A stretch of DNA of 62,594 bases, the filler included. It is 11 parts of 11 records of this genome, joined end to end, with 100 filler letters (N's around TTAATTAATTAA, not from the genome) between each part and the next. Parts side by side here need not be neighbours in the genome. Positions count along the whole stretch, not along the records: positions 40,180 to 45,442 come from SRR31156797_79583; 10 more parts are not named here. One strand, written 5' to 3'. A model generated the notes under the pieces. The model searched no databases, had not been told where the DNA came from, and was given only the letters and a program-made list of their open reading frames with translations. Position numbers and translations under genes: made by a program. Position 1 is the stretch's first letter; each line of letters begins with the position of its first letter. Of this stretch, positions 40,080-48,245 are shown one piece after another.

Positions 40080-40491
40080 NNNNNNNNNNNNNNNNNNNNN
40101 NNNNNNNNNNNNNNNNNNNNNNNTTAATTAATTAANNNNNNNNNNNNNNNNNNNNNNNNNNNNNNNNNNNNNNNNNNNNAATCCTGATTCGGCAAACCCT
40201 GGACCACGCCGCAGCTCGCTTGATGCCACTCACTCATGGCACTTCAGGATGTATGATCGTTTATGACAACCTTTCCTGATTACAACTTCTCTACTGTAAC
40301 TATAGATCGTGAATTTACGGGTGCAAAATAAAAACCATAAATCTGCAACAGGTGATACGTTCGTCTCCTGCGGACATCGTGCATTATGCCAACTAACACA
40401 GCGTCAGATGAACAATGATGAAAAAACAAAGCTGGTTATGTCAACACGAGGCAGAAAAAGGTAAGCAGATACCTGATTGTTTTTATGAACA

Positions 40492-42021
40492 CTATCGCCC
40501 GAAGTCCACCTGAAATTCTGCAGCATCCTGCAGGGTAACGGAATCATCGCCATCGAAGTCGAAATTCTGACAGGCGCATGAAACACTGCTGCCATCCGGA
40601 CCGGTCAGGCATTCGGCAAACTGGCTGTAATCAAAAAGGTCGATGTCGCCGTCCCCGTCGGCATCTCCAGGCAGCCGCGGGCACGGTGGGTCAGGCCAGA
40701 AGGTCATCGAATCGACAAATGCATCGTAGATCGGCTGGTTCCAGTCGTCAGGATGCGTTGTCTGGAATGTCCACAGGTTGGTCAGATCCCAGATGTACAC
40801 CTCGTCCGGCTGGCTTGCAACGTCTTCGCATTCTTCCAATTGACTTGTCAGATGAGAACCGAGGCCTACCTGTATGCCGATCGAGTAACAGGCATGGAGA
40901 AACTCACGCGTTTCCATAGACGATAACGCACTGACGTTGAACTGACTGAGAGTCTCTTCTGTTTGATTCACAAACCAGGTTTCGAACTCTTCGACAAAAG
41001 AGGTCCAATCCTGTCCTGGTGCCGGATCGGTGCACAGTTCGTCACACCCTTTACGGCACCAGATCGTGTTCTTGTAGAAATGAAAGAGAACATCCGCATG
41101 CCAGGTGAAACCGGGCCAGTTGGTTACAGGTTGCTTTAGCCATTCCCGACCCGCATGCGCGGCGGACCATTCCAGGCAGGTTGCAGCGTCCGGTGTGTCA
41201 GTCAGGAGTCCGCATGGATTGTCGAACAGCAGGGTCAGTACATCGTCGACTCCATCGGTGCATTCGGCATGGAGATGCACGTCGAGGGCGTCGCAATAAT
41301 CATTGGAGAATGCGATCAGGCGATTTAACGCTGGTGTTGCTTCGTTTTCAGTGTTCAGACATGTGTTTTCGCAGGAAGGATAATCACAGAATTCGCGAGG
41401 AGCACAAATCCACTGGCCGCGGGCGGCCTGCCGAACCAGGCCGGGGGTTGTTGCCGGCGCAATCAGGGGTGTGTTGCAACCGCTTTGGTTGATTCCACTT
41501 CGCAGGGCTCCTGCCTGCAGCTCGAGCCAGGCGTATGCATCCTCAAGGTCCGTATCATCCCAGAAATCCGGTGTCTTCCCATTGATGAAAAGCGTTCCGG
41601 GACCACCGTAGATTTCATTGCCGATCTGAAACCCTTCCACCTCAGATGCATACAAAGCGGCAAACTGCATAAGACTTTCCAGTGCCTGCTCTGGCTCGGC
41701 TGGGATACAGTCCAGATCGGAGCCTTCACTGCATTCCATTCGAATGGAAATGATGGCTCGGACACACTGTTGATCCCAGGCATCGTGTAACGCTTCGAAT
41801 GCCAATTGTGCCTGAGGCTCGTTCAGTACCCGTTCAATATCCTTCAAGTCCATAATGACACGGAAGACAGACACACCCGGCAGTGTGAGATGTGGTGCAG
41901 TCGGGCTGATTTCAGGACCGTGGATTCCGATCTTCATTGCACGGGTTGGATCTCCTGTCGTGACAGTTGAGATCATCAGCAATACAGAAACAAATGAGAT
42001 GGACCAATATGATTTCTTCAT
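40492..42021 (-). CDS. Secreted putative clan GH-A-like TIM-barrel protein with C-terminal dockerin-like repeat
   Basis: Signal peptide; FQIGNE, DALDVHLH and TCLEWS; C-terminal PGDADGDGDIDLFDYSQFAECLTGP...FDFDGDDSVTLQDAAEFQ. Confidence 0.6.
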   Translation of the reverse strand: MKKSYWSISFVSVLLMISTVTTGDPTRAMKIGIHGPEISPTAPHLTLPGVSVFRVIMDLKDIERVLNEPQAQLAFEALHDAWDQQCVRAIISIRMECSEGSDLDCIPAEPEQALESLMQFAALYASEVEGFQIGNEIYGGPGTLFINGKTPDFWDDTDLEDAYAWLELQAGALRSGINQSGCNTPLIAPATTPGLVRQAARGQWICAPREFCDYPSCENTCLNTENEATPALNRLIAFSNDYCDALDVHLHAECTDGVDDVLTLLFDNPCGLLTDTPDAATCLEWSAAHAGREWLKQPVTNWPGFTWHADVLFHFYKNTIWCRKGCDELCTDPAPGQDWTSFVEEFETWFVNQTEETLSQFNVSALSSMETREFLHACYSIGIQVGLGSHLTSQLEECEDVASQPDEVYIWDLTNLWTFQTTHPDDWNQPIYDAFVDSMTFWPDPPCPRLPGDADGDGDIDLFDYSQFAECLTGPDGSSVSCACQNFDFDGDDSVTLQDAAEFQVDFGR

Positions 42022-42327
42022 GACTCTTTCCTCTCGTTGGCTGTGTTTTCAATCCGGCAATTTTCAACCGGACTCTCCAGACGAAACGATGCGTTCAGCG
42101 GTCTATTGCAGAAGTGAAAACCACCGCATGAACAGAGGCATTATCGGCCAACCACAGTATGGCAGGATAAAAGACAGAATGCCACAGAAAACAGGTTTTA
42201 TACGAAGGAGATGTGAATTGCGTTACGAAGAAAAAACCATCTGTCGAATGAGACAATGATACAGCGCAAGAAGCAGGCATTGGTGCAATTCTGAATTGGG
42301 ATTACAAATGCAATGGATCGGGTAGTT

Positions 42328-42993
42328 TCAATCCGTTTCGGTTACCCAGATGCGGCGGGCGGCAGCTACGCCGAGGGATGTGGTGGTGCGGCCTATGCGG
42401 ATTTCAATGGGGCCTTCGTACGGGGCTTTGTTTTCGATTTTGATTCGTGAGCCCATCTTGATGTTGAGACTGGTGAGATAGCGAAGAAACTCCGGATCGC
42501 CGTCGGTGACTTCGACCACATTCCCCTTCTGGCCTGCTTCCAGTGTATCCAGGCTTACGCCGCAATGATCCGGAATGACTCCATCGGGTTGAGGGATCGG
42601 CTGACCGTGTGGATCGAACTCGGGATGGCCGAGATGTTCGGCGATGCGTTCGATCAGTTTATCACTGACGGCATGTTCGAGGACTTCGGCATCCTCGTGC
42701 AACTCATCCCAGGATAGTCCGAGTGTTTCAGCAAGGAACAGCTCGATCAGGCGATGGCGTCTGAGCAGGTTGGTCGCGACGGATCGGCCCTTCGCCGTCA
42801 ACTGCGAGCCCTTGTAGGGTTCGTACCGGATATACTTCTGCTCCGCCAGGGATTTGAGCATCCCGGTCACGGAGGCTTTGCTCACACTGAGTTCCTGGCT
42901 GATCAGCTGTGTACTGGCACGCTGGTACCGTTCCTGCAGGACGTAGATCGCCTTGAGGTAATCTTCGACAGATTTGCTCAGCGCGCGTGCCAC
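42328..42993 (-). CDS. DtxR/MntR-family metal-dependent repressor with FeoA/SH3 domain
   Basis: SVEDYLKAIY, SVTGML, RRHRLIELFL, AEVLEHAVS and DPHGQPIP. Confidence 0.92.
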   Translation of the reverse strand: MARALSKSVEDYLKAIYVLQERYQRASTQLISQELSVSKASVTGMLKSLAEQKYIRYEPYKGSQLTAKGRSVATNLLRRHRLIELFLAETLGLSWDELHEDAEVLEHAVSDKLIERIAEHLGHPEFDPHGQPIPQPDGVIPDHCGVSLDTLEAGQKGNVVEVTDGDPEFLRYLTSLNIKMGSRIKIENKAPYEGPIEIRIGRTTTSLGVAAARRIWVTETD

Positions 42994-43066
42994 TGGAGTT
43001 CCCCCCGGTTACAGGAATCGACTCAGTCAACCGAAGCGATCAGGTGCAGTTACAGTGGATTCGGCT

Positions 43067-43333
43067 TCAGCTTGCAGGCGAAGCGGCTTCCGGTTCGGGT
43101 GCCTGGGCGGCCATCTCACGTTCTGCGATCATGTCTTCGAGCTGTTCTTTTTCACGAACGAGTTCTTCAAGCGTCATGCCGCCATGATCGGCCGAACCGG
43201 CCGGCATGTTGATTCCCTGTTTACGAAGGAACTCATCGACCTTCGGCTGGTTCTTCTTGTAGAGGTAATACCCGACAGCGGCACCGCCGAGACCTACAAT
43301 GAAACCCGTAATGTGATCAGAATTAAATGCCAT
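43067..43333 (-). CDS. Small GxxxG membrane protein (FezA-like)
   Basis: N-terminal TM GFIVGLGGAAVGYYLY followed by a charged coiled-coil (LEELVREKEQLEDMIAE); GAGGAG RBS. Confidence 0.7.
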   Translation of the reverse strand: MAFNSDHITGFIVGLGGAAVGYYLYKKNQPKVDEFLRKQGINMPAGSADHGGMTLEELVREKEQLEDMIAEREMAAQAPEPEAASPAS

Positions 43334-43354
43334 GTTTCACTCCTCTATCAATAA

Positions 43355-44197
43355 TCAACGAAAATGCATTGGAATACCATGTTTGCCACGACCATATCCT
43401 TCGAGCACTTCGTCGTGGACCCGGGATACTTCCCGTAATTCATCCAGCAGATCGCCCGGTCCTTTGCCTGGACTCAGTGCGTACTTCACGAGCCCCCCGA
43501 CCGAGTTGAATAACTGCACCGCCTCCGGCGTGTCCGTATCTTCGCGGACGACCATTTCGTAGCGGGGTTCCTGATCCGATTCATCTTCCACCAGGACCGG
43601 TTCGATCTGTGCGCCCTGGCTGGTCGGCTCGATCAGGTGCCTGGCGAAGGTGGAAATCCAGGTGATGATCGAAGCGTTCAGGAAGTTGCCTTTCATGAAC
43701 GACGTGAGCAGGTAGCCCAGGATCAGCACTTCCGGATCAATGTTGCCGCGAATGCGTGCTTCCCGCCAGCCGTGTTCGAAGACGGCGGCGGCTGTCCCTG
43801 CACCGGCAGTCCATTCCAGGGTTTTGCCGAGCCCGGAGCCTTTGCCGAACAGTTTGCCCAGTAATCCCAGACCAATCAACACTCCGGAGTATGTTGCGGA
43901 TTCTCCCATGACCGGTATTTCCGGCTGCGTCAGTAACCGGACGGGAACCAGGCCATGATCCAGCGAGAGAATAAACGCCACACGTAAGACAATTTCTTCT
44001 TTCGATACGTGACCGCCTCCGAACCGGACCAGGACGGATCGACTCGTCGGCGTGTAGATGACCGATGTGACTCCTTCATGGTTCAGCAGGTCCGACCGAA
44101 GCCGCTCGGGCTCTTTCAGGGCATGCGAGACGCGTACCCGCACTCTTCCCGGTAGCGAATGAACAATGGTCACGGATGGTTTCACTGTTTCATTCAT
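43355..44197 (-). CDS. HMA2-domain membrane protein (FezC-like)
   Basis: IVHSLPGRVRVRV HMA2 motif plus hydrophobic segments; start overlaps the ATPase stop (ATGA). Confidence 0.75.
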   Translation of the reverse strand: MNETVKPSVTIVHSLPGRVRVRVSHALKEPERLRSDLLNHEGVTSVIYTPTSRSVLVRFGGGHVSKEEIVLRVAFILSLDHGLVPVRLLTQPEIPVMGESATYSGVLIGLGLLGKLFGKGSGLGKTLEWTAGAGTAAAVFEHGWREARIRGNIDPEVLILGYLLTSFMKGNFLNASIITWISTFARHLIEPTSQGAQIEPVLVEDESDQEPRYEMVVREDTDTPEAVQLFNSVGGLVKYALSPGKGPGDLLDELREVSRVHDEVLEGYGRGKHGIPMHFR

Positions 44198-45442
44198 TTT
44201 CCCTGCTCCACATCATGGAATAACAGTCGGGACGAGTTGCCCACAACGGCGATCGTACACGCGTTGTGCAGCACCGCTCCCCAGAATACCGGAAGCACAC
44301 CTACCGACGACAGAACCAGCCCCAGCGTATTGACTCCAATCGCCGTGAAGAAGTTCTGCCGGATGATTTTCATTGTTTTCTGCGACAGCCGGACCACGGC
44401 CGGGATCATCAGCGGATCGTCACCGGCGATGGTGATGTCGGCAGCTTCCATCGCGAGGTGGGTTCGTGTCCCGCCCATGGCGATGCCTACCGTTGAATAC
44501 GCCAGTGCGGGGGCATCGTTGATGCCATCGCCCACCATAGCCACGTGAACACCCTTGGATTGCAGACGCAGCACCATTTCCGCTTTTTGTTCTGGCAGCG
44601 CTTCGGCGCGATAGCGATCCATCGACATCCGGTACGCGACGATCTCGGCATGCTGCTCGACATCTCCGGTGAGCATGATGATGTCATCGATGCCGGCGTG
44701 GCGCAGGCGGTTGAGGGATTTTTTCATGTTTTCGCGGAGCGAATCCTGAACACCGAGAACGCCCAGGAGGTTTTCATCCCGTGAGACGTATACGATGTTT
44801 TCACCCTGGCGGGCGAGGCGGGATGTCGCATCGTGGGCGGAGTCCAGGACTACGCCGCTTTCTTCCATGAACCGCAGGTTTCCAACGCGGATCGTCGTTC
44901 CTTCGACGACGGTCTGCACACCGCGAGCCACACAGACTTCCGTCTGGCTATGCTGCGGGATCGCAAGCCCTTTCTTCCGGGCTTTGTCCATGATCGCCAC
45001 GGCCATCGGGTGCGAGCTGTTTTCTTCAGCCGCTGCGGCGCAGGACAGCAATTGTTCTTTCGTAATTCCAGGCAGTGTCGGGATTGTCGTGCTGACCGTC
45101 GCCTTGCCTTCGGTCAGCGTGCCTGTTTTATCGAAGATCAGGGTGTCGGTCTGCGAAAGCAATTCGAGATAGTTCCCACCCTTGATGAGAATCCGGTTTC
45201 TCGCCGCGGTGCAGATCGATGCCGCTAATGCCGTTGCCGTGGAGAGCCGCACGCCGCACGAGTAATCGATGATCAGCATGTTCAGAGCACGACTCGGCTT
45301 GCCTGTCACAAAGAACACAACCGCTGACAGCAGGAAGTTCATCGGGATGAACTGTGCGGAGATTCGGTCTGCAATGGTCTGGATCGGTGCGCGATGATGG
45401 GTCGCCTCTTCCACCATGTGGATGATGCGGGCGACTGCCGTG
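44194..45442 (-). CDS. Heavy-metal P1B-type ATPase, P1B-6 (FezB-like), 5' truncated
   Basis: TM motif IDYSCG, DKTGTLT, SSHP, LTGD, GDGINDAPAL and HNACT. Confidence 0.92.
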
Positions 45443-45542
45443 NNNNNNNNNNNNNNNNNNNNNNNNNNNNNNNNNNNNNNNNNNNNTTAATTAATTAANN
45501 NNNNNNNNNNNNNNNNNNNNNNNNNNNNNNNNNNNNNNNNNN

Positions 45543-46533: not shown

Positions 46534-47883
46534 TCATGTATGACGGTCATGGTTTTTCCCGGGCACAAGCTCCCACACAGGGCTTGTCACCGCCTTATGA
46601 ACCTCGCTTGCGAAATTTTTCATTCCAATGAATCCGGCAAGGGGTGTTTTCCGGTCATGGTTGAAATCACAGAATCCGATCCCCATCTTGCCGGCGACGG
46701 CCCGTTCTTTTCCCCCGCCCACGAAAAGCTCGGCCTCCGTTTCAACGATATATTTGGCAAGGGCAAGGGGCTTGGCATCATCCAGGATAACCGTGCCCTT
46801 GGCACAGCTTTTCTTGAGGATTCCATAATCCGCAGAACGACCTGACTGAATCCCCACAAAAACAACATCCATGCCCAGGAACCCCAGTGCCTTGATCATG
46901 GAAACGGTCCTGGAGGTGTCCCCCACGCAGATACCGGCCTTTTTCCCCTTGAGATCTTTTTTCATATCCATGAGCGCGGGTAAGATCGCCCGGACTTCGT
47001 TACGCACCAGGCTCTCCGTGCGCTTCATGATCGAATGGTTGTGAGAAAAAAATCCGGCAACATTATAAAGGGCATCGGACATGTCATCCAGGCCAAAACA
47101 GGAGACCCGGATGTAGGGAATGCCGTACGCCTGCTCCATCTTTTGGGCAAGGTAAAGCATGGCGCCGGAGCATAGAACCACATTGAGGGAGGCCTTGTGG
47201 GCGGCCTGGATCTCCGCCACCCCGCCCTCCCCGGTCATCACCGATACCACCTGGATCCCGATTTTCCTGTAATACTCCCTGATGATCCACGCCTCACCGC
47301 CCATGTTGAACTCCCCCAGAATGTTGATGCTCTCCCTTTCCACCTCTTTGCCGCGGTTTTGCCCGATCAATTGGAACAATGCCTTGCAGCCGGCCATTCC
47401 GGCGTCCTTCCCCCCTCCGGAATAGACGGGAAGAACGGGGATATTTACTTTGGCCGCCACCTTCCGGCACACGACATCCACATCGTCGCCAATGATACCG
47501 ACGATGCAGGTGGGGTAAACAAAGGCCGCACCGGGAGAGTAAAGATCGATCAGTTCCACCAGGGCGTTGTATAACTTTTCCTCTCCCCCATTAATGATGT
47601 CCGTCCCGGTCAGGTCTGTAGAAAACCCCATCCGATGGAGTTCAGGTCCCGGGGAGAGGCCCCCCCGGATCTCCCTGGTGCAGGCGGTACAGCCCATGGG
47701 CCCGTGGACAAGGTGGAGGGCGTCGGCAATGGGATACAGGACTGCCTGGGCTCCGCAAACCACACAGGCACGACGCCCCATGGTGCCGGCATCACGCCCC
47801 TGGCCGCAGTCCTTCTCATTTGCGTCTGTTCCTTTGCGCCGTCCCTGTTTCTTTCCCCCTTTATATTTGGGTCTCCTATCCAT
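46534..47883 (-). CDS. nifE: NifE-like nitrogenase cofactor scaffold subunit (divergent, no adjacent nifN)
   Basis: RACVVCG..AVLYPIADALHLVHGP.GC, FSTDL, TCIVGIIGDD, NILGEFN.GGE, VLCSG and DFNHDRK...AGF.GM.NFA.EV; ATG at 47883 with GGGGGA RBS. Confidence 0.85.
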   Translation of the reverse strand: MDRRPKYKGGKKQGRRKGTDANEKDCGQGRDAGTMGRRACVVCGAQAVLYPIADALHLVHGPMGCTACTREIRGGLSPGPELHRMGFSTDLTGTDIINGGEEKLYNALVELIDLYSPGAAFVYPTCIVGIIGDDVDVVCRKVAAKVNIPVLPVYSGGGKDAGMAGCKALFQLIGQNRGKEVERESINILGEFNMGGEAWIIREYYRKIGIQVVSVMTGEGGVAEIQAAHKASLNVVLCSGAMLYLAQKMEQAYGIPYIRVSCFGLDDMSDALYNVAGFFSHNHSIMKRTESLVRNEVRAILPALMDMKKDLKGKKAGICVGDTSRTVSMIKALGFLGMDVVFVGIQSGRSADYGILKKSCAKGTVILDDAKPLALAKYIVETEAELFVGGGKERAVAGKMGIGFCDFNHDRKTPLAGFIGMKNFASEVHKAVTSPVWELVPGKNHDRHT

Positions 47884-48245
47884 CGTTCCCCCCGAGATTA
47901 TGGATTTGCCGATTCCGCCTTTTGGGTCATCCGCTTTTTTACAACTGCGGAATACTATCGCAAAGAACGTTCCAGGGAGATCCCCAAAAGAGTGAAAGAT
48001 CATACCTGCCTGATATTAAAGATTATCTTCCCAGACCATCTCGCAAAAAGGGAGTTAAATGGAAGGGGAGTTAATGGCAAAACTTACAATTATAGATTTT
48101 CATCGTCGAAATAATACATTTTTGTCATGCAACACAATATTAACAACACATATGTATCGCATCCCCAAAGACAGTCCAACCAGACAGAGAACCTGGAAAA
48201 AAAGAAAAAGTATCATGGGGGGAAGAGAATCCCCCCATTTTCGGG

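Follow-up and report, generated by a model that had tools for sequence, protein, structure and literature searches.

The DNA analysed here (the window, 62,594 nucleotides in all) consists of 11 contigs joined through N44-TTAATTAATTAA-N44 linkers, with contig GC contents ranging from 0.28 to 0.62. One contig, at positions 40180-45442 (record SRR31156797_79583; 5,263 bp, GC 0.54), carries four co-oriented open reading frames (ORFs) on the minus strand. These encode a P1B-type ATPase (the pump, 44194..45442), an accessory protein of 280 amino acids (280-aa protein, 43355..44197), an 88-aa protein with GxxxG motifs (43067..43333) and a 221-aa DtxR-family repressor (42328..42993). The arrangement resembles the fez clusters of ferrosomes, and we propose, at a probability of about one half, that it may encode a ferrosome-like metal-storage module built on a possible sister of FezB, the ferrosome pump.

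The pump gene is represented by its 3' 415 codons, the 5' part being cut by the contig end; about 320 N-terminal residues (full-length relatives have about 735 aa), the upstream gene or genes and the promoter lie off the contig. The ATG of the 280-aa gene overlaps the pump stop codon (ATGA). The 88-aa gene follows after 21 nt, the repressor gene after a further 73 nt, and a 509-aa gene after another ~300 nt. An earlier reading of these letters (the sequence-only reading) had described a co-oriented run of four genes with an HMA2 protein translationally coupled to the pump. Both the run and the coupling were confirmed, the coupled protein carries the motif HSLPGRVRVR, and the gene order is kept in relatives. 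Pieces of one DNA sequencing run, possibly the source of the contig itself, span the pump/280-aa and repressor/509-aa junctions without differences; none of the pieces listed bridges the gap between the 88-aa and repressor genes, and no RNA sequencing run among the matches listed carried the cluster. Rfam gave no match on the contig or beside the cluster in relatives.

Conservation of the unit in other bacteria

Relatives of the 280-aa protein numbered 39 at 42-62% identity in a word search and 192 clusters at E 1e-10 in a profile search. A scan of named genomes with the single 280-aa sequence returned nothing, whereas a scan with its alignment succeeded and gave 38 loci in named genomes and 54 metagenome loci. 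Thirty of the 38 genome loci were planctomycete-titled (Pirellulales, Planctomycetaceae, Isosphaeraceae), a share that is biased because the scan patterns were drawn from mostly planctomycete-like sequences; the other eight included Desulfocapsaceae, Gemmatimonadaceae and two spirochaetes. Beside the 280-aa gene, and in the window's order, the pump was found in 37 of the 38 genome loci and the 88-aa gene in 36. Since both flank it in 35 of 38, the arrangement is not a chance one. Upstream of the pump the relatives carry a full-length HMA_2 gene of 187 aa, frequently accompanied by another HMA_2 gene of 140 aa. The conserved unit comprises five to six genes, with the 187-aa HMA_2 gene first, the 140-aa one present in some cases, and then the pump, 280-aa and 88-aa genes; it is carried by planctomycetes, Desulfobacterota, spirochaetes and Fusobacterium. 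For the 280-aa protein and the repressor of the window, the best matches (62% and 72%, respectively) are each listed with a longest contig of 2,589 bp, which hints at a possible second case of the window's order.

Two further carriers stand out. Fusobacterium vincentii (NZ_CP084075.1, L046) has all five genes with a DYSCG pump, and Priestia/Bacillus plasmids (NC_004604.2, L047; NZ_CP015356.1, L200) have a related five-gene set with a DFICG pump. Like the kin of the window, these unannotated units contain two HMA_2 genes followed by the pump, an HMA_2 membrane protein and a small GxxxG protein; unlike the window, they show no DtxR gene in the stretches examined, and their hosts are cultured. 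Nothing on the function of either unit was found in the literature searched. In planctomycetes, the 280-aa family was absent from all of 400 randomly drawn genomes beyond the seed. Judged by these searches the unit is rare and patchy there, and it is probably mobile.

The pump and its partner proteins

The open frame of the window pump (415 aa) scores 401 bits with TIGR01525, against a cut-off of 346. Its motifs are IIDYSCG (IIDYSCGVRLSTAT), DKTGT and HNACT, and the metal helix reads DYSCG-VRLSTAT. Full-length relatives begin with an R-rich HMA_2 domain (HxLPGRVRI, above cut-off), a part that lies off the contig in the window pump. FezB has been defined by D[Y/F]SCA together with HNxxT (Grant and Komeili, 10.1101/2020.01.10.902569). 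The last-helix HNACT of the window pump agrees with HNxxT, and the first motif is DYSCG, not D[Y/F]SCA. The DYSC/HNxxT P1B-6 pump of the sequence-only reading therefore stands as regards P1B and HNxxT and falls as regards the published FezB motif. Among 157 pump rows counted, all 151 of the DYSC type read DYSCG. Two side observations on the same rows are of possible relevance to metal choice: throughout the D[Y/F]xCG clade the usual proline of L-[S/A]-T-P after the metal motif is missing (STAT), and a last-helix Cys, HN[A/S/T]CT, occurs in 113 of the 157.

We placed the pump in five trees, in which the references were DYSCA-type, CtpC-like (DUF1490-linked) and other pumps from sampled genomes together with E. 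coli ZntA, CopA and KdpB; the DYSCA references counted as FezB-like are genome proteins assigned by motif alone. One P2-type row was left out of the first tree, and the later trees used subsets of 38, 33, 26 and 23 rows. All trees gave one R-rich radiation of five arms, with the window pump beside the Fusobacterium and DFICG pumps. In all five it fell outside the DYSCA (FezB-type) arm. In the two careful trees D[Y/F]xCG and DYSCA came out as sisters (support values 48/58 and 80/92, neither of them starred), and the three quick trees placed D[Y/F]xCG instead with an ACPCG/VCPCA pair. In approximately unbiased (AU) tests on full-length rows, a joint clade of D[Y/F]xCG with the CtpC-like pumps was rejected (p=0.004) and one with DYSCA was not (p=0.45); for DYSCG alone with DYSCA, p was 0.086 on the C-terminal part and 0.025 at full length. 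By these alignments the pump is a member of a D[Y/F]xCG clade and not a FezB in the strict sense, and the clade is possibly the sister of the FezB clade. A phylogeny with FezB and CtpC references was a check proposed by the sequence-only reading; with the motif-assigned FezB-like pumps and the CtpC-like pumps as references, it places the pump in neither group.

One possibility is that the cluster encodes a detoxifying exporter of Zn or Mn resembling CtpC/PacL. The HN motif and, in full-length relatives, the R-rich N-terminus are shared with CtpC (10.1101/2020.01.10.902569; 10.1101/2021.10.01.462712; PMC13460109), and the pump is 41% identical to a DUF1490-linked, CtpC-like pump vs 35-37% to DYSCA pumps. 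In addition, the Mn exporter gene mntP lies convergently downstream of one related locus (L147), and a CDF-like gene, recognised by eye, lies beside three (L009, L132, L154). CtpC-PacL1 and the DUF1490-linked pumps are also like the present system in belonging to an R-rich, P1B-6-like radiation, in the last-helix HN and in having a small single-helix partner. They are unlike it in that the window pump has no CPC motif and the 88-aa protein has no DUF1490 match and no His-rich tail, in that the unit holds three or four HMA_2 proteins, and in that the joint clade is rejected, as given above. A CtpC-like identity of the pump was rejected on the missing CPC motif and the AU result. Moreover, ctpC is induced by zinc excess (10.1101/2021.10.01.462712; PMC13460109), the opposite of the ferrosome pattern, whereas the operators shared with importers that are described below, situated just after a -10 element, fit repression by metal. 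A Mn/Zn platform of this kind, which the sequence-only reading had offered as its alternative, is not favoured, and we regard an efflux function as very unlikely.

The 280-aa protein matches HMA_2 weakly (E 0.0015, below cut-off), and HMA_2 matches were obtained in 35 of 38 members of its family. R-rich accessory proteins, a feature of fez clusters, are therefore present, namely this one and the 187-aa and 140-aa HMA_2 proteins encoded upstream in relatives. A structural model (predicted local distance difference test score 76.7) shows an HMA-like domain without Cys, followed by four helices (99-189) and a small family-specific C-terminal region. In hhalign, residues 4-187 aligned with residues 5-210 of the pump family at probability 97.5 and E 8.2e-12. 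A VIA structure search with the helices gave as its top match residues 125-219 of ZntA (4UMW), the N-terminal membrane part (Z 10.3, root mean square deviation 3.9, 95 residues aligned); as a helical bundle below Z 13 this match counts solely in combination with the profile match. Foldseek gave no match for the model at E 0.001. Because the profile match and the structural match point to the same part of the pump, the 280-aa protein is best read as a paralogue of the N-terminal part of the pump, one that is catalytically empty. Its hydrophobicity is moderate (17-residue means of 1.4-1.6), so that its membrane location rests on this homology. His142 and His187 are conserved in the family.

The sequence-only reading had taken the same protein for a FezC-like HMA protein. 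FezC has an HMA domain and two helices, is DUF4405-like and binds haem through His (10.1101/2020.01.10.902569). No DUF4405 match was found in any of the 38 members of the 280-aa family, and its four helices are homologous to the N-terminal part of the pump; FezC was therefore rejected as its identity.

These features also bear on a second possibility, namely that no granule is made: the accessory proteins may form a membrane platform which stabilises the pump and, under starvation, supplies secreted enzymes or those of the envelope with scarce metal, or which aids uptake. A catalytically empty copy of the pump's N-terminal part is what a stabilising subunit might look like, and neither a FezC-type haem protein nor a ferritin-like gene was seen in the unit. 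Partners of the PacL type scaffold membrane microdomains, and DUF6110/P1B-6 pairs have been proposed to act alike (10.1101/2021.10.01.462712; PMC13460109); control shared with importers would suit metal delivery as well as storage. On the other side, the nearest characterised systems with an Asp motif and starvation control, those of FezB, do make granules (10.1101/2020.01.10.902569; PMC13463818). The 88-aa protein has kin in large fez clusters and none in PacL. C. difficile reportedly makes granules with a small fez set. On balance a platform without granules seems doubtful to us.

The 88-aa protein agrees with the sequence-only description of a small GxxxG membrane protein. It has two GxxxG motifs, GFIVG and GAAVG, in an N-terminal Gly-rich hydrophobic segment, as do the small hydrophobic GxxxG proteins of fez clusters, and a conserved C-terminal segment, L-E-E-L-x-x-E-K-E-x-L-E-D-x-I-A-E-R. 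No Pfam or NCBIfam family names it, and its Atlas neighbours are nameless clusters; the control protein of L048 scored 136.8 bits with DUF1490 (PF07371), which found nothing on the 88-aa protein. The family profile matched the Fusobacterium protein at E 6e-33 and those of the Bacillaceae units at E 5e-12 and 6e-13. Among 19,359 segments it matched full-length small ORFs that end large two-pump DYSCA clusters (E 1e-5 to 4e-3) and no PacL-like ORF. By profile, then, the protein is akin to the small proteins of large fez clusters and not to PacL.

Regulators, predicted operators and cargo

The 221-aa window repressor has three domains, a FeoA domain included. It keeps Asp11, His80, Glu84, His99, Glu103, Glu106, His107, Asp127, His129 and Asp164, as well as Lys14; ten of the eleven listed primary and ancillary ligands of DR2539 are thus retained, Gln131 replacing DR2539 Asp130. 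The best NCBIfam match, NF047407, is below cut-off (187 vs 350 bits). The closest solved structures are 5ZR4, which we take to be M. tuberculosis MntR, and 8PVT. Judged by domains and ligands the repressor is of the three-domain MntR/DR2539 type. The structure 8PVT is that of DR2539, a Deinococcus manganese sensor (10.1101/2024.02.12.579695). DR2539 represses mntH with Mn(II) or Fe(II), for which His98 is needed, and its binding to DNA is supported by Mn, Zn, Fe, Cd or Ni (10.1101/2024.02.12.579695; PMC3327659). The window repressor is like DR2539 in the primary and ancillary ligands, Lys14, the equivalent of His98 (His99), the recognition helix ASVTGML and the FeoA-like third domain, and its relatives control mntH. 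It differs in the Asp130 to Gln exchange and in being attached to a pump/HMA_2 operon, whereas DR2539 stands alone. From its position as the last gene of the operon, and from the relatives, we infer that it controls the operon.

Regulators were surveyed in the 31 genome loci with at least 1.2 kb upstream. A DtxR-family gene adjoined 21 of them (17 long, 4 short), which supports the DtxR link of the sequence-only reading. Fifteen of the long regulators lie divergently upstream, 12 of these with mntH behind, and two, in spirochaetes, lie downstream as in the window; the four short, two-domain ones lie upstream of the cluster. In the pump tree, loci with a short regulator or with just its box were spread across deeper branches, the divergent long type formed one clade of 14 rows, and the spirochaetes and the window lay apart from that clade. 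Long regulators from the three groups fail to form one cluster (37-50% identity). Since they sit on three separate branches of the pump tree without mutual grouping, the long three-domain regulator seems to have been recruited three times. Position 11 is Asn instead of Asp in the regulators from Pirellulales and spirochaetes, and most short DtxR proteins have His or Cys where MntR has Glu, Cys being the DtxR/IdeR residue at that position. The cluster regulator was the sole DtxR-family match in three of five genomes with a long-regulator cluster, and FeoB was found in two of the five. Two side observations belong here. At L004:299-796 and at seven other genome loci, mntH of the divergent mntR-mntH operon is followed by a gene for a universal stress protein (Usp). 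Locus L027 bears an Acidobacteriaceae title, but its pump, its MntR and MntH and the DNA between its genes group within the Pirellulales clade, through either misbinning or recent transfer.

Two predicted operators emerged from the relatives. The first, TTAGC-N4-GCTAA, goes with the short DtxR type. It occurred at 15 sites in the 92 cluster loci vs 0-1 in 20 shuffles, and exactly in 15 of 201 loci compared, 13 of them cluster loci and some duplicates. In five whole genomes (28 Mb) there were eight exact sites, seven at the cluster and one, accompanied by a second near-perfect copy, before a feoA-feoB gene. A weight matrix found a strong site (19.1; training sites 21-28) about 100 bp before feoB in a second genome; five further feoB loci, covered over no more than 1.5 kb, had no such site. 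At one locus (L153) feoB lies immediately ahead of the cluster. The core of the box is similar to the palindrome in front of E. coli mntH, AAACATAGC-N4-GCTATGTTT, which is presumably the MntR box. It also resembles the DR2539 site ATTTTAGTCGCGCCTAAAAT (10.1101/2024.02.12.579695; PMC3327659). The second operator, TTTGG-N4-CCAAC, follows a TATAAT element before the cluster in 12 of 14 loci of the Pirellulales clade. Its relaxed form TTTGG-N4-CCAA[A/C], which was set after inspecting three loci, stands before mntH in 11 of 12, mostly as CCAAA (200 shuffles: mean 0.035, maximum 1). A genome-wide search for the Pirellulales box with two mismatches gave control level apart from the cluster sites. 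No yybP-ykoY riboswitch was found in 19 related loci.

Further observations on the upstream regions were made in passing. An imperfect palindrome like GTTG-N8-CAAC lies beside TTGAC within 200 bp upstream of the 187-aa gene, often in loci without an adjacent regulator (L002, L003, L006, L014, L019, L023, L028, L036, L138, L153); it is exact in 3 of 48 loci counted, looser by eye, and a third regulator may control these loci. Single loci have metal or redox genes as neighbours: mntP (L147:3242-3826), feoB twice (L153:1-681 and L150:1264-1707), catalase (L011:11900-13339) and an Rrf2 regulator (L138:7796-8314). A two-mismatch Pirellulales box before Fur/PerR-like and ferritin-like genes, recognised by eye (L249, G001:C28), is at control level and possibly due to chance.

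DtxR-family proteins generally repress when metal-bound. Because the boxes are common to the cluster and an importer, and because in Pirellulales the box follows a -10-like element, the operon would be off in metal plenty, kept so by the metal-loaded repressor, and starvation would turn it on at the same time as the importer. The GxxxG and HMA_2 proteins may then gather the pump into a membrane patch or vesicle, and on the return of metal the pump would move divalent metal into the lumen, where it would be held, probably with phosphate as in ferrosomes. Since control is shared with metal importers, this points to starvation-induced storage rather than detoxification. Ferrosome granules likewise appear on re-feeding after starvation (10.1101/2020.01.10.902569; PMC13463818). 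Fe(II) is the likeliest cargo, because the link between short DtxR and feoB spans deeper branches and because repressors of the DR2539 type answer to both Fe(II) and Mn(II).

It might also be that in the MntR-tied versions (the window, the two spirochaetes and one Pirellulales clade) the stored cargo has changed to Mn(II), or to Mn together with Fe. The closeness of the window repressor to 5ZR4 and 8PVT, with ten of eleven DR2539 ligands and Lys14, argues for this, as do the three apparent recruitments of a long regulator, the one box type before both mntH and the cluster, and the fact that the cluster regulator is the sole DtxR-family match in 3/5 genomes, with FeoB found in 2/5. However, the membrane motifs are constant across regulators, with DYSCG in all and HNxxT variants in both groups; DR2539 itself answers to Fe(II) and binds DNA with several metals; Nramp proteins carry Fe(II) also (TIGR01197 name); and Asn at position 11 in the Pirellulales and spirochaete regulators and the missing yybP-ykoY riboswitch fit poorly with manganese. 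A change of cargo to manganese is thus possible and, in our judgement, unlikely.

The storage module remains our preferred reading, and the likeness to fez clusters is close. Common to both are the pump motifs Asp-Tyr-Ser-Cys and HNxxT, the R-rich domain at the N-terminus (seen in full-length relatives of the window pump), R-rich proteins that are coupled, a small GxxxG protein, and iron-uptake genes and Fur/DtxR regulators nearby (10.1101/2020.01.10.902569). DtxR beside fez clusters is thus already in print (10.1101/2020.01.10.902569). The differences from what that source describes are DYSCG-x-RLSTAT vs D[Y/F]SCA-x-KL and a separate clade, a downstream partner that is a paralogue of the pump N-terminal part rather than a DUF4405-like FezC, and a three-domain MntR-type repressor that closes the operon. 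A number of results weigh against the storage reading. Concerning the pump, these are the DYSCG motif, the position outside the DYSCA arm in every tree, the grouping with ACPCG/VCPCA in the quick trees, the lower identity to DYSCA than to the CtpC-like pump, and the motif-only assignment of the FezB-like references. Concerning control, 10 of the 31 loci have no regulator nearby; the short-DtxR pattern was derived from cluster loci, so that its independent sites are those at feoB, in 2 of 7 feoB loci and 2 of 5 genomes, and the pattern read backwards is commoner genome-wide (4-14 per genome). By the tree the mntH link is one clade and one event, and mntP at L147 suits export. Neither box lies on the window's contig, which ends before the promoter, and no site there is above chance. 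The ferrosome-like reading of the earlier account survives in its fez-like architecture, its DtxR link and in storage over detoxification; its naming of the module as fezB-fezC-fezA does not, given a pump outside the DYSCA clade and a 280-aa protein that is not FezC.

Host, neighbouring genes and wider meaning

The window pump shares about 70% identity with copies from planctomycetes, from Desulfobacterota and from unclassified sources alike and lies outside the 23-row clade that holds the planctomycete pumps. Among 120 repressor relatives listed, the three with an organism label were from a Planctomycetota (58%), a Phycisphaerales (57%) and a 'bacterium' (57%). The minus-strand 509-aa neighbour (40492..42021), a signal-peptide protein outside the module, is absent from every related locus compared. 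Its dockerin-like tail matches below the Pfam cut-off (20.8 vs 22.9 bits). A search with this tail, a weak host test, had matches in 2 of 301 genomes of planctomycetes and in 0 of 151 of Desulfobacterota, and the whole protein found 1 of 301 planctomycete genomes, in the tail region and with no full-length relative. The gene of this secreted Cys-rich protein has a GC content at third codon positions of 0.57 vs 0.64-0.71 for the three larger cluster genes. With no Phycisphaerae among the 38 genome loci, the pump outside the planctomycete clade and the dockerin-like match below cut-off, the Phycisphaerae-like host suggested earlier is no more than possible; from the gene comparisons a planctomycete host has a little over even odds.

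A planctomycete host is not the new part in any case, since canonical DYSCA-type pumps occur in planctomycete genomes: at least 7 of 300 sampled have them with GxxxG and HMA_2 neighbours. Five planctomycete genomes of 2.9-4.1 Mb (L189-L193; G089, G237, G171, G034, G114), which look like anammox bacteria to us, carry canonical FezB-like pumps of the DYSC[A/S] type, accompanied by one HMA_2 protein and a pair of small GxxxG proteins. Two large planctomycete clusters (L194, L195; G137, G207) combine feoB and a FeoA-like gene with two pumps, one DYSCA and one ACPC-ATVLAAS, and with several Gly-rich membrane proteins. Two Desulfobacterota clusters (L178, L179; G679, G617) pair an ACPCG or VCPCA pump with an ACPC/SCPC-ATxLAAS pump, with no DYSCA pump in the stretch examined; in L178, feoB and a degenerate DtxR-like gene lie in the vicinity as well.

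Two other features of the window were recorded. A terminator-like hairpin at the repressor stop codon (42315..42334, minus strand) is weak, six such sites occurring on the contig against a chance expectation of 4.6 +/- 2.3. The N44-linker-N44 junction at 45443..45542 separates unrelated contigs, and genes past it carry no context; the nifE-like, TonB-receptor and other genes past linkers were therefore rejected as cluster context. On another contig (46534-52181), and unrelated to the cluster, a NifE/NifD-like ORF (46534-48003) stands behind TonB-dependent receptor-like and FmdE-like ORFs recognised by eye.

Among the literature matches listed there was no DYSCG pump, planctomycete fez cluster or fez with MntR/mntH (the supplementary tables of the preprint may list such pumps or carriers), and no test of a D[Y/F]xCG cluster, no account of a pump-paralogue partner and no mention of the two operators or of a feoB/mntH regulon swap. 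A 2026 review asks whether ferrosome-like structures exist for metals other than iron (PMC13463818). The present unit is a compact candidate for that question, with predicted boxes common to feoB in some hosts and to mntH in others. Cultured carriers exist in Fusobacterium and, as a related plasmid unit, in Priestia megaterium, and the analysis supplies two predicted operators. If the feoB-linked and the mntH-linked copies both store iron, ferrosomes would extend beyond the FezB motif now used to find them. There is a small chance that the D[Y/F]xCG clusters build a second ferrosome-like organelle in which the truncated pump copy is a subunit and the MntR-tied versions store manganese; if that were true, it would be the first non-iron ferrosome-like compartment.

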